Assembly (NCBI GenBank): GCA_949292205.1
Contig: CASEYR010000002.1
Location: forward strand, 34,777 to 98,776
Direction of reading: 5' to 3'
DNA length: 64,000 bases
Origin: an uncultured Alphaproteobacteria bacterium
GTDB lineage: Bacteria; Pseudomonadota; Alphaproteobacteria; CAAHEQ01; UBA3637
Part shown: piece after piece, positions 41,031 to 47,198 of the stretch
How the letters are laid out: each line of letters begins with the position of its first letter
How positions within the stretch are numbered: position 1 is the stretch's first letter
Made by a program: the position numbers and the translations under genes
The notes under the pieces: generated by a model
The model's input: only the letters and a program-made list of their open reading frames with translations
What the model was told of the DNA's origin: nothing
Database searches by the model: none

Positions 41031-41059
41031 TTGCGTTTTTGTTCTCTTTGTTGTATAAA
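41031..41059 (+). promoter_or_regulatory. Sigma70-type promoter of the displaced tRNA-Thr 5' half
   Basis: TTGCGT-N17-TATAAA, 11 nt before the tRNA 5' G. Confidence 0.7.
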
Positions 41060-41070
41060 GAATCTGCATT

Positions 41071-41108
41071 GCCGATTTAGCTCAGTTGGTAGAGCAACGC
41101 ATTCGTAA
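41071..41108 (+). pseudogene. tRNA-Thr(CGT) 5' half (attL)
   Basis: Identical to 47082-47119 up to the end of the anticodon loop TTCGTAA, then diverges (GGCATCGCC). Confidence 0.92.
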
Positions 41109-41277
41109 GGCATCGCCAATCAAAAAACTTTTCTTATTTTTCAATAGCCTGTTTTTGTAAACTCTCAATTTAGGACTTTTTTGGGTTCTTTTTGCCCTAT
41201 TTTTTAATTTTATTTTTTGAAAATTGTTGCACAGATTATTGACTTTACCAGAGTCTTTTCAAAAACAAAAAATCTTA

Positions 41278-41754
41278 TCATTTTTGTTTTCTTTCTACCC
41301 TAAAATCTTTTTCTGTCATTAGAGTGTTATTGTCAGATTTTACCTCTTTTGCAATATATGAGCCCCACGCTATATTATACAGCGGTTCAACATGCACTTT
41401 AGCTGATTTAACAATTTTTTGAACACCTTTGTTCAGGTAAACAATCAACCTGCAAAGTGTGCAAAAATGAACAGATTTAACCTTTAACATAAAATGATAA
41501 TGCCTGTTCATTCCTGATTTTCCCATCTCTTGAAAGCCAATAAAAGGATACTGTTCCGATTGCCTCATATACCATTTTCTGCCTAATATCTTCCGGTAAA
41601 GCGTTCCGAAAGCAACCTTAATTGCCTTTTTAGCCTCATTTTCCGTAATATCATCCTTATTAAATTGAAAGGTTAAGCAGACATTGTAATTTTGGGCCAA
41701 ATCAAGCATCCACTTTTGCATTTCCTCTTTAAACTTTTCATCTTGCCGGTTCAT
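41278..41754 (-). CDS. HUH endonuclease / rolling-circle replication initiator-like protein
   Basis: Motif I CLTFQF, motif II RHYHFML, motif III YIAKE. Confidence 0.7.
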   Translation of the reverse strand: MNRQDEKFKEEMQKWMLDLAQNYNVCLTFQFNKDDITENEAKKAIKVAFGTLYRKILGRKWYMRQSEQYPFIGFQEMGKSGMNRHYHFMLKVKSVHFCTLCRLIVYLNKGVQKIVKSAKVHVEPLYNIAWGSYIAKEVKSDNNTLMTEKDFRVERKQK

Positions 41755-41762
41755 ATAGCCTC

Positions 41763-42818
41763 CTATTGAAAAATACTCTGATTCATATTTTCAACGAACT
41801 TTTGTTTATAATCCGTCATAACATGTGCATAGCGTTTAACCATATCCATTGTGTGATGTCCTAAAATCTCAGAAAGCGGAATCAAGCCAATACCTGTCCG
41901 AAGTAAATAAGTGGCGGCCGTATGCCTTAAATCATGAAATCTGAAATCTTGAATACCGGCTGTTTTAAGTGCTGTTTTCCATGCTTTTTTAAAATCAAAA
42001 GTTTTTCCTTTTATTCGTCCTTGAAACACAAAGTCAAAATCATGACTTTTATCTGTTGCATTTTTAATCTGCACCAGAATATCATAAGCAGTCCCGCATA
42101 AAGGCACGCTGCGTGTATCTCCGTTTTTTGTGTCTTCAAAAATCAACCGATGTTCATCCAGCATCACATTTTTCCACTTTAATTTTAAAATTTCAGATCT
42201 GCGTGCGCCTGTGCTTAAAGCAATCACAACAATCGGATACAAGTAAGGCATTTTAGATTTTTGACAGGCATTCAACAATAATTTGATTTCGTCATGAGTC
42301 AAATAACGCGTGCGTCCTCTGGGTTCTTTTAATTTTTTAATCTGTTGACAAGGATTAGAAGAAATAATTTGCCATTCTTTCATGGCCGTCGTCATCAAGC
42401 CACTTAAAACGATAACATATTTGTTGATTGTTGCCGGTTGTCTTGATCTGAATTGATGACCGACTTGATATTCTGTCGTCATCAGTTCTGAACGACAGGC
42501 CACAATATCTGTCGTGGTAATAGCTGTCAATAATTTATATCCCAGTTTTGCTTTCCACCAATTCAAAATAGACATAGATAATGATTTGATTTTATGCTCT
42601 TTGATATACTTATCAATCGCCTGTGCCAATGTGGCTTTACTGGACCCATAACCATGTGCCCTTGTAAAATTGTCAATATCGGCCATTTGCTGATGATACC
42701 ATCTGGCCGCATCATCATAATAAGCAAATGTCTTTGATTTATCAATTAAATTTTTAATCCTGATTCTGGCTCGATAGTGTGGTGTTGATCTTCGTTTGCT
42801 TTCAATTTTCTCTATCAT
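41763..42818 (-). CDS. Tyrosine recombinase (integrase)
   Basis: TGARRSE, DTKNG, FHDLRH, LGHH, KRYAH: full catalytic set, plus N-terminal arm-binding-like region. Confidence 0.96.
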   Translation of the reverse strand: MIEKIESKRRSTPHYRARIRIKNLIDKSKTFAYYDDAARWYHQQMADIDNFTRAHGYGSSKATLAQAIDKYIKEHKIKSLSMSILNWWKAKLGYKLLTAITTTDIVACRSELMTTEYQVGHQFRSRQPATINKYVIVLSGLMTTAMKEWQIISSNPCQQIKKLKEPRGRTRYLTHDEIKLLLNACQKSKMPYLYPIVVIALSTGARRSEILKLKWKNVMLDEHRLIFEDTKNGDTRSVPLCGTAYDILVQIKNATDKSHDFDFVFQGRIKGKTFDFKKAWKTALKTAGIQDFRFHDLRHTAATYLLRTGIGLIPLSEILGHHTMDMVKRYAHVMTDYKQKFVENMNQSIFQ

Positions 42819-43011
42819 TTTTTACCTTTCATTTAAGTGTTAGGTATATATTTATCTAAAAATAAAAAATATAATTTTTAATAACAGGATGATTGTAAAA
42901 AATTTTACATCTTATTGAAAAACAAGAAGTTATGGATAATAACGCCTTTTGTTTATAAAAAACACTTCGGCTCAAAAATGTGCTATAATCCGATTCAGAA
43001 AGGATAAAAGT

Positions 43012-43842
43012 ATGCTGATCACAGAGCCGAACACAATTTTGCTTGCAAAGCCCAATAAGAAAATAGAAAAAATATATGAAGGATGCTATTCGGATATTTT
43101 TCAACGCTTGAAAAGCACATTAGAAAAGTATCATGAAGTTCATATATTGGATTTACCTGACATTTGGATAAGAGATTTTGCCCCCTTTTTTACCGATAAA
43201 AAAGCTATTCCGTTGTTATATAAACCACCCTACCAATCATTTTCCAAAAGTGAGCAGATTCAATCAGAATGTCTGAAACATTTTCATGATTTTCCGATCC
43301 CTTTGCCTATCCGATTTGATGGCGGTAATTTAATTGCAAACAGGCAAGGTATAGGTATTGCAACGAAAAAACCGTTAGAACTGAATAACATCAGTCAAAA
43401 TGAAATGAATCTGTTGATGGCAGAATTATTTGGCATTCAACAGATGATATGGCTTCCCTATGAAACTGGCGACACGATTGCCCATATTGATGGTATGATG
43501 CAATTTTTAGATGATACAACGCTCATCATCAATGAACCCAACAGCAAAGAATTAAAGAAATGTCATCAAATTTTGCAACAGGCATGTCCCCATATCAAAT
43601 TAGTAGATATTCCGTGTAAGCCAACTTATGAAAAATATTATGGGTGGGAAAGCGTTAAAGGTGTCTATGTCAATTTCTTACAGACAAGCAAAATCATTTT
43701 ACTTCCCATTTATGATATGCCGACAGATGAGGAGGTATTGAACATTATTCAAAACCATACTCATAAGCCGGTCATACCTGTCAATGCCACAAAAATATCA
43801 AAATTCGGTGGCAGTATCCATTGCTTAACCAATGGATACTAG
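43012..43842 (+). CDS. Agmatine deiminase / peptidylarginine deiminase (pentein) family
   Basis: DIWIRDFAP, FDGGN, AHIDG, YVNFL, GGSIHCLT; start chosen at MLITEPN after AAGGA. Confidence 0.88.
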   Translation: MLITEPNTILLAKPNKKIEKIYEGCYSDIFQRLKSTLEKYHEVHILDLPDIWIRDFAPFFTDKKAIPLLYKPPYQSFSKSEQIQSECLKHFHDFPIPLPIRFDGGNLIANRQGIGIATKKPLELNNISQNEMNLLMAELFGIQQMIWLPYETGDTIAHIDGMMQFLDDTTLIINEPNSKELKKCHQILQQACPHIKLVDIPCKPTYEKYYGWESVKGVYVNFLQTSKIILLPIYDMPTDEEVLNIIQNHTHKPVIPVNATKISKFGGSIHCLTNGY

Positions 43843-43916
43843 CCTCATTTAGCTACCTTGGATTCGTTGTTCAAATTCACATTGCGAAATGCGATATTCT
43901 ATTTTATGACACTATG

Positions 43917-43940
43917 AGTAGGTTCCATCCAGAACCTACC
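43917..43940. terminator. Hairpin between convergent island genes
   Basis: GTAGGTTC-catcca-GAACCTAC. Confidence 0.5.
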
Positions 43941-43964
43941 CACTTTAAAAATTTTCATTTTTAA

Positions 43965-46741: not shown

Positions 46742-46757
46742 ATATAAATTTTGAAAT

Positions 46758-46805
46758 AAAAAAGCATAATCAACGAAGATAAGTTCGATTGATTGTGCTT
46801 TTTTA
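46758..46805. terminator. Terminator after the UDG-like operon
   Basis: AAAAAAGCATAATCAACGAA-gataag-TTCGATTGATTGTGCTTTTTT. Confidence 0.75.
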
Positions 46806-46912
46806 TATATTTATTACCAAGTATCCATATTTGCCCCTCAGAATAAAAGTGTTTTTTATATGATAATACCTGTTTCGGGACAAATTCAGGACAATTTTAT
46901 ATTAGATTTTAT

Positions 46913-46945
46913 AAAAAAATAACTGCTTATAAATGAAGCAGTTAT
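46913..46945 (-). terminator. Terminator downstream of the inverted tRNA 3' half
   Basis: Minus strand ATAACTGCTT-catttat-AAGCAGTTAT-TTTTTT. Confidence 0.7.
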
Positions 46946-46953
46946 ATGGAACA

Positions 46954-46999
46954 TGGTGCCGAAGAGAAGACTCGAACTTCCGACCCACGCATTACGAAT
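46954..46999 (-). pseudogene. Inverted 3' half of a different tRNA-Thr(CGT) allele
   Basis: Minus strand ATTCGTAATGCGTGGGTCGGAAGTTCGAGTCTTCTCTTCGGCACCA: anticodon loop to CCA, with T-arm and acceptor differing from the intact copy. Confidence 0.9.
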
Positions 47000-47041
47000 A
47001 ATGTTCTCTTTGCAAAAATAAAGACAAGATTAAAAAAAATC

Positions 47042-47070
47042 TTGCAATTCGCTTTTCTTTGTTGTATAAG
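47042..47070 (+). promoter_or_regulatory. Element-borne sigma70-type promoter driving the intact tRNA-Thr
   Basis: TTGCAA-N17-TATAAG, 11 nt before the tRNA; shares TCTTTGTTGTATAA with the promoter at 41031-41059. Confidence 0.7.
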
Positions 47071-47081
47071 TGTTTATCTTT

Positions 47082-47157
47082 GCCGATTTAGCTCAGTTGG
47101 TAGAGCAACGCATTCGTAATGCGTGGGTCGGGTGTTCAAGTCACCCAATCGGCACCA
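47082..47157 (+). tRNA. tRNA-Thr(CGT), intact (attR)
   Basis: Perfect cloverleaf: GCCGATT/AATCGGC, ACGCA-TT-CGT-AA-TGCGT, GGGTG-TTCAAGT-CACCC, ACCA. Confidence 0.97.
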
Positions 47158-47163
47158 TGTTCC

Positions 47164-47198
47164 AAGCCTCTTATTCACTTAAGAGGTTTATTTTTTTT
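47164..47198 (+). terminator. Terminator after tRNA-Thr
   Basis: AAGCCTCTTA-ttcact-TAAGAGGTTT followed by a T tract. Confidence 0.7.

Follow-up and report, generated by a model that had tools for sequence, protein, structure and literature searches.

An integrative element that splits the tRNA-Thr(CGT) gene of gut Alphaproteobacteria, and the probable inversion that joined its own tRNA gene to the remaining host half

Integration locus and tRNA gene pieces

The 64,000-nucleotide stretch analysed here (the window, to whose positions all coordinates refer unless another locus is named) belongs to contig CASEYR010000002.1 of an uncultured alphaproteobacterium (assembly GCA_949292205.1, hereafter G000) and contains a 6-kb integrative element, equipped with a tyrosine integrase, that is inserted in the anticodon loop (TTCGTAA) of the tRNA-Thr(CGT) gene. 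The GC content of the inserted DNA (41109-46998) is ~32%, versus ~45% in its flanks. Comparison with close relatives suggests that the window copy is probably a derived isomer, in which an inversion fused the promoter and 5' half of a tRNA gene carried by the element to the 3' half of the host gene. The locus is marked by three copies of the core TTCGTAA, which the first-pass annotation had placed at, or within a few bases of, the positions given below; they belong to pieces of tRNA genes and are not chance 7-mers.

At the left end, the host promoter region of the split gene (41019-41070, plus strand; TTGCGT and TATAAA separated by 17-18 nt), which has the same place and pattern before unoccupied genes in the related genomes G005, G003 and G012, leads into an orphan host 5' half (41071-41108, plus strand; GCCGATT...) that ends in core X1 (41102-41108) and constitutes the left attachment site, attL. 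This piece is identical to the first 38 nt of the intact tRNA gene, and after TTCGTAA it diverges (ggcatcgcc...), so that the first-pass description of a promoter and a tRNA 5' half that then break off stands. Beyond the core lies the P' arm (41109-41277, strand not assigned; ggcatcgccaatcaaaaaac...), which is conserved beside the core in G004, G023 and G065 and recognisable in G008 and G073; the X1 5' half and its junction with the P' arm are identical in G004, G023 and G065. The exact direct repeat of 40 bp (41069-41108 and 47080-47119) that had been reported is part of a 93-nt repeat of 82% identity, which includes the promoter region at equal spacing.

At the right end, core X2 (46992-46998, minus strand) opens the orphan 3' half of the element's own tRNA-Thr(CGT) gene (46954-46991, minus strand), so that 46954-46998 reads on the minus strand as TTCGTAA followed by a 38-nt 3' half with the CCA end encoded; a terminator (46919-46945, minus strand), consisting of a 10-pair hairpin and a run of T, comes next, and the same terminator follows the intact element tRNA gene of G004 and G023. 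The acceptor strand of this half is CTTCGGC, versus AATCGGC in the intact gene, in agreement with the earlier recognition of an inverted 3' half from a different tRNA-Thr(CGT) allele. The inverted cassette (46999-47112, plus strand) comprises core-proximal P-arm sequence, the promoter of the element tRNA gene (TTGCAA, 17 nt, TATAAG) and its 5' half (47082-47112). It runs into core X3 (47113-47119, plus strand), the anticodon loop of a hybrid tRNA-Thr(CGT) gene (47082-47157, plus strand; detected by ARAGORN, and by Rfam with 71.5 bits over the full model), in which the element promoter and 5' half are joined to the host 3' half (47120-47157) ahead of the host terminator (47164-47189, plus strand) and the ileS gene.

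A perfect inverted repeat of 20 bp (46980-46999 and 47112-47131) lies within an 88-nt inverted repeat of 74% identity, and TCGGCACCATGTTCCA is common to the inverted 3' half and the intact copy; both features had been pointed out beforehand. The view of a cassette situated between two alternative 3' halves also stood, except that its length, the 114 nt (46999-47112) that separate cores X2 and X3, had been put slightly too low at ~112 bp. With inverted cores on either side of the cassette and the integrase gene 4.2 kb away, the locus has the combination of sites and recombinase that characterises invertible-segment switches. The window copy also has the structure of a 5'-replacing element, the end next to the intact gene supplying the promoter and 5' part and the displaced piece being a 5' fragment.

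A consensus promoter scan of the window listed neither of the two tRNA promoters, which were assigned from their conserved position and pattern across genomes and are presumably active. With permissive thresholds, Rfam scored the intact tRNA gene only, the halves being too short, and its three other matches (E 0.4-0.9) are due to chance. The integrase (351 aa; 41763-42818, minus strand) belongs to the tyrosine recombinase family, as had been proposed: its residues 172-333 match PF00589 with E 1.3e-31 and 110.1 bits, against a curated cut-off of 27.1, and it matches the phrog_1 integrases with E 2.9e-66. Its identity to the integrases of G004 and G065 is 100% in the genome search listing and 99.7% by blastp of called open reading frames (ORFs).

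Host gene and unoccupied sites

The G000 assembly (1.33 Mb in 26 contigs, 96% complete) has 44 tRNA genes, with each anticodon represented once except for two genes of tRNA-Met(CAT), and the gene at 47082-47157 is the only one for tRNA-Thr(CGT). Being the sole gene of its kind, it indirectly suggests that the element or its hybrid tRNA may be needed for survival of the cells that carry it. A tRNA-Thr(TGT) is present in G000, and such a tRNA might read ACG by wobble.

Unoccupied sites were found in G005 and G003, which belong to the same genus, and in G012, of the same family; all genomes compared are metagenome-assembled genomes (MAGs). In these, an intact tRNA-Thr(CGT) gene follows the same glycosyltransferase or ComM genes that lie to the left of core X1 (the ComM/Mg-chelatase-like protein of the window is encoded at 37933-39429), and the hybrid tRNA of the window has 0 differences in 76 positions from the chromosomal tRNA-Thr(CGT) of each. 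Because the genes at the empty sites match the window tRNA perfectly, the host tRNA-Thr(CGT) gene is identified as the target, of which the piece at X1 is the displaced 5' part and 47120-47157 is the 3' part.

Relatives that split the host gene and carry a complete tRNA gene

A search of 80 genomes of the family with the integrase found close copies (71-100% identity) in five, namely G000, G004, G065, G008 and G073; G023, where the element is split over two contig ends, was recognised as a sixth carrier by DNA match. Four of the six element-carrying genomes (G004, G023, G008 and G073) have an arrangement designated state A, in which an orphan host 5' half, core and P' arm lie at one end, an orphan host 3' half, core and P arm at the other, and a complete, inverted element tRNA-Thr(CGT) gene lies between them. 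In these four genomes the host tRNA gene is left unrebuilt and a complete cognate tRNA-Thr(CGT) gene is present on the element; in the window, where the element tRNA gene is in two separated parts, and in G065, the host tRNA gene is rebuilt, the hybrid of the window being equal to the host allele. Thus the 5'-replacement announced by the first-pass annotation describes the window copy, whose gene uses the promoter and 5' half of the element, but not the family, and a survey of relatives for the window's layout recovers the inverted tRNA, in complete form, in the four state A genomes but no inverted half in G065. The basic design of the family is to replace the tRNA gene that it destroys, and the 5'-replacement of the window is a derived, host-fitted state.

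The element of G004 is at the same locus as that of the window, between the glycosyltransferase gene and ileS, with the host 3' half beside ileS and no 5' half attached to it. The cassette beside the core of this host 3' half has the orientation opposite to that in the window and leads into an intact tRNA-Thr(CGT) gene, whose 5' start (GCCGAAG) pairs with CTTCGGC and which is followed by the same terminator as in the window. Joined together, the host 5' half and host 3' half of G004 show 0 differences in 76 positions from the unoccupied gene of G005, and a DNA search of G004, which is ~75% complete, found no further copy of tRNA-Thr(CGT). G023 has the same layout as G004, and its orphan host 3' half differs from G005 at 3 positions, one of which would break the anticodon stem. 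State A extends to G008 and G073, with integrases of 91% and 71% identity and spacers of ~310 and ~280 bp, respectively, from the core of the right attachment site, attR, to the element tRNA gene.

The element tRNA of G004 and G023 is identical (76/76) to the chromosomal tRNA-Thr(CGT) of G024, which represents another genus of the family, and this match points to a G024-like lineage as donor of the element tRNA gene. The chromosomal gene of G024 (L058, G024:C7, 4144-4219) has flanks that differ from those of the element tRNA gene. In G008 and G073, the 3' halves of the element tRNA genes show 0 differences in 38 positions from the orphan host 3' halves; the whole element tRNA of G008 equals the chromosomal allele of G001, G002, G007 and G009 (0/76), from which the element tRNA of G073 differs at 7 positions. 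The element tRNA gene has thus been exchanged more than once.

The elements of G008 and G073 have further peculiarities. In G008 (L046, G008:C29), ~260 bp upstream of the orphan 5' half (15740-16000) are similar to part of the tRNA module of the resident element, namely its spacer, promoter and 5' half (7117-7375), with 85% identity overall and ~97% over the proximal ~120 bp, and this stretch comes directly after an unrelated 168-aa host ORF and not after the glycosyltransferase gene of other members of the genus. It looks like the fossil of an earlier cassette that serves as host promoter, or like the result of homogenisation between the two copies. In G073 (L048, G073:C4, 1707-10476), the block of genes for the UDG-like protein, the helix-turn-helix (HTH) protein, the PAD protein, the integrase and the Rep protein is reversed relative to the attachment and tRNA module when compared with G004 and G008, so that the integrase gene is near attR rather than attL; the ORFs adjacent to the tRNA gene (283 aa in G073, 286 aa in G004) are unrelated. 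No single recombination among the three cores explains this reversal, and it was rejected as the product of recombination between X1 and X2 because X1 still joins the P' arm and the element tRNA gene is intact. The inversion of the cargo by recombination between X1 and X2 that had been predicted for the window found no supporting evidence.

Crossover site and inversion of the cassette

In all six genomes, the host 5' half at X1 extends up to the end of TTCGTAA and is followed by the conserved P' arm. At attR of G073, the element side reads ...GAGCAACGCA (with ACGCA) and the host side TCAGTAGG..., with TTCGTAA between them. Because the element sequence ACGCA is kept there against the CTGA/TCAG stem of the host gene, strand exchange is placed inside TTCGTAA, which bears out the proposed crossover in the 7-nt anticodon loop. 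The core is thus short and its chromosomal attachment site, attB, lies within a tRNA gene; in G008 and G073 the core is lengthened to GAGCAACGCATTCGTAA. The overlap region of tyrosine recombinases is usually 6-8 bp, which fits a 7-nt loop.

The anticodon stem-loop of the element tRNA gene is an exact, inverted copy of attB at a distance of 114 bp (~300 bp in G008 and G073) from the attachment core. Between G000 and G023, 111 of 115 positions of the cassette are identical, its orientation is opposite relative to both flanking 3' halves, and in both genomes its junctions coincide exactly with the two cores. Of the four differences, one is an A/G substitution, one is a 1-nt insertion or deletion in a run of A, and two make up the change of AG to TT at tRNA positions 6-7. 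Combined with the host acceptor strand AATCGGC, the original GCCGAAG would give the mismatches A6-A67 and G7-A66, whereas GCCGATT pairs fully; the change is thus compensatory, restoring the pairing of the acceptor stem. The 3' halves of the intact element tRNA in G004 and G023, and of the chromosomal tRNA in G024, have exactly the sequence of the orphan 3' half left behind in the window; together with its terminator, this orphan half is one base off G004 over the compared stretch.

It is therefore likely that the window represents a derived isomer, state B, in which inversion joined the promoter and 5' half of the element tRNA gene to the remaining half of the host gene. The direction of change from state A to state B follows from the element tRNA of G004 and G023 being a consistent natural allele, whereas the element-derived parts in the window mismatch each other. 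As the first-pass annotation had worked out, the gene that would result from flipping the cassette back in the window has the mismatches U6-U67 and U7-C66, the counterpart with GCCGAAG that pairs with CTTCGGC being found in the relatives with the other orientation; flipping back would thus be harmful in the window copy, where the cassette is fitted to the host 3' half. Whether it came about by conversion or by mutation, the repair from AG to TT indicates that the hybrid is under selection as a working gene.

Over ~4.4 kb from the P' arm to the HTH gene, the element of G000 is 98.9% identical to that of G004 and 98.6% to that of G065, and the latter two are 99.5% identical to each other; in the stretch from the tRNA gene to ileS, G000 and G004 share only ~78% identity, and G065 is from a different genus. 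This disparity between elements and flanks implies that the element has moved recently between species and that its tRNA module was rearranged on that short time scale.

The element of G065 illustrates another outcome (state C). It has no element tRNA gene and no inverted half; instead, at CCTGTTTCGGG, an 11-bp microhomology that in the window is at 46869-46879 (plus strand), the element DNA gives way to duplicated host sequence from the upstream side of the tRNA gene. The resulting direct repeat of 161 bp, with 2 differences (159/161 identical to its own host), spans the host terminator, promoter and 5' half, and gives G065 the structure of a 5'-replacing element. The high identity to its host and the join at a microhomology indicate that the 5' copy is a recent capture, and it may have originated by aberrant excision or by templated repair at the microhomology, through which the element would have gained the host promoter and 5' half and lost its own tRNA module.

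Metagenomic runs and soundness of the assembly

The stretch is present, in part or in full, in 20 public runs (8 studies), which by their records are all animal-gut or faecal metagenomes; those with at least half of the sampled words come from several studies and are gut or faecal samples of chicken, bird and pig, which fits an animal-gut habitat of the element and its hosts. Four runs were examined, all of them as assembled contigs (Logan, k=31), which drop minor variants; the survey of copies covers six genomes and four runs. In run X1, the probable source of G000, a 6031-nt contig is colinear with 41079-47109, and the depth of the element (19.2) is similar to that of the flanks (21.2 and 20.1). 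A 6030-nt contig of run X6, which comes from another study, follows the window colinearly over 41079-47109/47111, with 103 differences, and represents state B in a diverged copy. State A is seen in run X2: a 3549-nt contig starts with the cassette in opposite-strand orientation (joint at 47014/47111) and then passes into the host 3' half and a diverged ileS. The contigs of runs X2 and X4 that cover the element 3' half end 10 nt past 46999, which fits state A but is weaker evidence, and the zero coverage of 46542-46758 in these two runs is uninformative.

Scans with the integrase found only relatives of 29-43% identity among metagenome contigs, no relatives among viral contigs, and only the same five MAG loci among genome contigs; a megablast search of a plasmid collection with the element DNA gave no match.

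Proposed mechanism and alternative explanations

The arrangement probably arose as follows. The integrase would recombine within the 7-nt anticodon loop of the single tRNA-Thr(CGT) gene of the host and thereby insert an element of 6-9 kb. In state A, attL retains the promoter and 5' half of the host gene and attR its 3' half, and the element supplies a complete gene with its own promoter and terminator, located 85-310 bp from the core of its attachment site, attP, and pointing away from it. Because the element tRNA gene holds a perfect, inverted copy of attB, recombination of core with core would invert the intervening piece. In the circular form of the element, this would be a reaction of attP with attB, within one copy or between copies, and a flipped circle would integrate to give state B directly; in the integrated form, the inversion would be a reaction of attR with attB. 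In state B, the element promoter and 5' half face the host 3' half as a hybrid gene, and the element 3' half and its terminator are orphaned. The initial hybrid, with A6-A67 and G7-A66 mismatches, would then have been repaired by the change of AG to TT at positions 6-7, most economically through a short conversion tract from the orphan host 5' half 6 kb away, which differs from the original one at these two bases alone, or else by two selected point mutations. The inversion may have taken place in the circular form or in place, and both promoters would be active.

Several observations weigh against this account. The two cores are separated by 114 bp, a short distance for synapsis in a single molecule; rare homologous recombination could use the 20-bp perfect inverted repeat, and the sequence does not separate the two routes; and the change of AG to TT requires a second event. 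As for present activity, both orientations were found together in none of the four runs at contig level, and a separate state A junction was not found in the G000 assembly. State B is known from one MAG, from the probable source run of that MAG, and from one contig of another study, run X6, whose host flank is not that of G000 (depth 0 at 47193-47400); the state of run X4 is deduced only from a contig that ends 10 nt past 46999; and all genomes are MAGs, among which G004 is only ~75% complete.

That the orientation of the cassette, or the integration itself, is a misjoin at the repeats is exceedingly improbable. All of the sequences are metagenome assemblies, and the 40-bp direct repeat does break contigs at k=31 (ends at 41079 and 47109-47111), but the perfect inverted repeat is only 20 bp, shorter than k, and single colinear contigs of two studies span X2 and the cassette in the orientation of the window, so that misassembly is unlikely; moreover, the even depth across the element and flanks in the source run speaks against a misjoin, and TT at positions 6-7 is a difference of sequence and not a join. 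The possibility that 5'-replacement is ancestral, with X2 as the relic of an earlier attP and the complete element tRNA genes of the relatives as secondary, was raised by the first-pass annotation and has very little probability. Recombination of elements with the 5' part of tRNA genes is known (PMC6563490, citing Zhao and Williams 2002), and the element of G065 replaces the 5' part cleanly, but state A occurs in four of six genomes and across integrases of 71-100% identity, the copy in G065 is a recent capture, and it is unlikely that the flip of a host-fitted cassette followed by back-mutation would recreate an element tRNA that equals the G024 allele at 76 of 76 positions. X2 instead heads a 3' half that became separated from the rest of the element tRNA gene.

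A historical inversion is supported, and the question is by what agent it was made. Homologous recombination by the host between the inverted 3' halves (a perfect repeat of 20 bp inside 88 nt of 74% identity), instead of integrase action, is possible but not probable: the exchange point can be resolved only to 20 identical bases that start at the core, the spacing of 114 bp is awkward for two integrase-bound sites, and G065 demonstrates that recombination that is not site-specific also remodels the module. For efficient RecA exchange, however, 20 bp is at or below the usual minimum. The repeat begins exactly where the integrase exchanges strands, the anticodon stem-loop of the element tRNA is a perfect attB, and there is a precedent in integrases that invert DNA between inverted tRNA-type attachment sites, as described in part of PMC5495485; these three points favour the integrase over RecA as the probable, though by no means certain, catalyst of the inversion.

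A programmed, reversible switch resembling a shufflon, in which the integrase keeps flipping the cassette so that the intact element tRNA and the hybrid are both present in a population, is an unlikely extension of this inversion, and so are the benefits that it might bring, such as a secure supply of working tRNA in any host or regulation of ACG decoding or of readiness for excision. Both orientations do occur among elements that are 98.6-99.5% identical and in different metagenomes, and in G008 and G073, where the orphan host and element 3' halves have 0/38 differences and the P side keeps GAGCAACGCA by the core, a flip would be neutral for the product. Yet no run or assembly contains both states, though contigs could miss them; a flip back in the window would create the U6-U67 and U7-C66 mismatches, and a forward flip in G004 or G023 the A-A and G-A mismatches; and both states specify the same isoacceptor, with no regulatory output evident. 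Thus the flip between X2 and X3 that had been foreseen for the window has its counterpart in the opposite state of G004, G023 and the run X2 contig, but the ongoing toggling that went with it has no support, nor has a toggling of ACG decoding; one functional tRNA-Thr(CGT) is predicted for each state.

More broadly, it is doubtful, if attractive, that the module of three cores (attL, the anticodon loop of the element tRNA gene, and attR) is an integrase-driven device for reversible tRNA shuffling. If it were, shuffling would let the element alternate between a host-independent mode with a whole tRNA and host-rebuilding modes with hybrids, the promoters and halves of host tRNA genes would be rewritten as the element moves between species, and there would be a general route between tRNA-dependent integrative elements and those of reverse orientation, which replace the 5' part.

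Gene content of the element

Next to the integrase gene lies a gene for a Rep-like protein (158 aa; 41278-41754, minus strand; PF23343 REP_ORF2-G2P, E 2.1e-05 and 25.1 bits, below the cut-off of 27.8), which adjoins the integrase gene also in G004, G065, G008 and G073. The remaining genes encode a PAD_porph-family (agmatine/peptidyl-arginine deiminase-like) cargo protein (297 aa; 42949-43842, plus strand; PF04371, E 4.4e-32), a cargo protein of 303 aa with no match in Pfam or PHROGs (43965-44876, minus strand) that is 99% identical in G004 and G065, a Cro/CI-type HTH regulator (125 aa; 45140-45517, minus strand; PF01381, E 3.8e-12; phrog_8 and phrog_3), a possible UDG-superfamily-like cargo protein (214 aa; 45684-46328, plus strand) with a weak match (PF03167, E 1.7e-4 and 22.1 bits, below the cut-off of 24.3), and a cargo ORF of 116 aa without a family match (46391-46741, plus strand), which has relatives of 45% identity in G004 and G065. 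A PHROGs scan of 10 proteins found no structural or lysis genes, its matches being limited to the integrase, the HTH regulator, a DnaB-like ATPase of G004, and one family of unknown function; with no virion genes in that scan, and with 32% identity as the best match of the integrase in a phage collection, the element does not qualify as a temperate phage. The right flank is formed by ileS, which encodes an isoleucyl-tRNA synthetase of 1037 aa (47301-50414). Direct adjacency of this gene to the tRNA gene is confined to G000 and G004: in G008 the distance is 4.7 kb, and in the remaining relatives examined ileS lies on a different contig from the tRNA gene.

The segment between the HTH gene and the tRNA terminator (45568-46870) is variable cargo, 1.3 kb long in the window versus 2.9 kb in G004 (L029, 4554-7457), where it holds the DnaB-like ATPase (286 aa; phrog_19, E 1.5e-17); the region in G065 (L047, 9000-10400) holds another set of ORFs. 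Between the elements of G000 and G004, 30 of 50 substitutions fall within the first 500 bp (41109-41608), a region made up of the P' arm and the 3' portion of the Rep-like gene, whereas the integrase gene is nearly invariant; this clustering points to a patch acquired by recombination or to relaxed constraint. G000 (L044, G000:C5:59906-60604) and G004 (L045, G004:C6:61380-62240) each encode a second tyrosine integrase, a distant one that shares 31% identity with that of the element.

A motif, GTCCTnAAtt/TTGTCC, is located beyond the terminator of the element tRNA gene (~46884) and, inverted, ~60 nt into the P' arm (~41168), and it recurs in G004 (L029, 4528 and 11848) and G008 (L046, 7186, 7474, 15671 and 15920). 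These might be arm-type integrase sites, which is offered as a lead only, since two mismatches were allowed in AT-rich DNA and other matches occur too. In the G000 lineage, the candidate sites are outside the invertible cassette.

Comparison with known integrative systems

Distant relatives of the integrase (33-43% identity) were found at 23 loci in 17 of 400 other genomes of the class, and they mostly look canonical: 12 of the 23 loci have an intact tRNA gene within 1.5 kb, in every case upstream of the start of the integrase gene and in 11 cases on the same strand. Their tRNAs are Ser, Arg, Met, Leu, Tyr, Lys and Phe, in contrast to tRNA-Thr(CGT) as target in the window, where the attachment site is beyond the stop codon of the integrase gene and the Rep-like gene.

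Closer parallels are found among systems that destroy their target. In the tRNA-dependent lysogeny described for the actinobacteriophages Fionnbharth, LeBron, Gaia and others (Guerrero-Bustamante and Hatfull 2024, PMC10865867), a tyrosine integrase uses an attB in a tRNA gene, no functional host tRNA is rebuilt, because the common core is short, and a phage tRNA of the same isotype is supplied. State A resembles the lysogeny of these phages in its tyrosine integrase, its attB in the anticodon loop, its cognate tRNA of the same isotype that is nearer to the allele of another organism, and the length of the common core (7-17 bp here, 8-17 bp in Table 2 of PMC10865867). It differs in its alphaproteobacterial host, in being an element of 6-9 kb without recognisable virion genes, and in the position of the cognate tRNA gene, which is here inside the attP region, inverted, 85-310 bp from the core, but in Fionnbharth overlaps gene 37, elsewhere in the genome. 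It differs also in having natural isomers in which the element tRNA gene has recombined with the attachment core and the host gene is rebuilt; the word 'inversion' is absent from PMC10865867. Two prophages of Sinorhizobium meliloti that integrate in the middle of tRNA-Leu(UAG), inactivating it, and carry a tRNA of the same kind (PMC11476347) share with the present elements the alphaproteobacterial host, the mid-tRNA integration and an element tRNA that resembles that of another taxon. They are full prophages, and an inverted adjacent tRNA gene, a hybrid gene and isomers are not reported in the relevant passages of PMC11476347.

The inversion itself has precedents of another kind. The integrase of pTN3 from Thermococcus inverts DNA between inverted tRNA-type attachment sites, and the integrase of HK022 has been cited as inverting DNA between attP and a secondary site (both in the corresponding part of PMC5495485). 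The pTN3 examples are large chromosomal inversions and test plasmids; the inversion deduced here from sequence comparison would concern a cassette of 114 bp in the element's own attachment region, with a hybrid tRNA as its outcome. In a literature search for 'chimeric tRNA gene' or 'hybrid tRNA gene' together with integrase, inversion and attachment site, neither phrase was among the matches listed. New here are the inverted cognate tRNA gene in the attachment region, the isomers that rebuild the host gene, the compensatory repair of the acceptor stem, the capture variant, and the small carrier without virion genes.

These elements extend the design of tRNA splitting plus replacement, known from actinobacteriophages (2024) and Sinorhizobium prophages, to a small element in uncultured gut Alphaproteobacteria with reduced genomes. 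A single lineage of 98.6-99.5% identity displays three solutions, namely a whole replacement gene, a hybrid made with a flipped cassette of 114 bp, and a promoter plus 5' half captured from the host. The acceptor stem, with its two compensatory bases, is a clear natural case of a chimeric tRNA repaired by selection, and shows that mobile elements can rewrite the only copy of a host tRNA gene together with its promoter. The integrase, the 7-bp core and the cassette make a compact set with which the use by a lambda-type integrase of an attB copy within its own attP arm could be tested.

Recombination in the 5' region of tRNA genes is "considerably less frequent" in the account given in part of PMC6563490 (citing Zhao and Williams 2002). 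States B and C are like the elements concerned in bringing a promoter and 5' part, with the rebuilt gene at the end that supplies the latter. Here the 5'-replacing form has two origins within one lineage, by inversion of a cassette and by capture of host DNA at a microhomology, and this gives a tangible explanation of how the rare elements replacing the 5' end of a tRNA gene could originate. How the tRNA-dependent systems relate in evolution to the tRNA-reconstructing ones, a matter that PMC10865867 calls unclear, is directly addressed by a single lineage that contains both.

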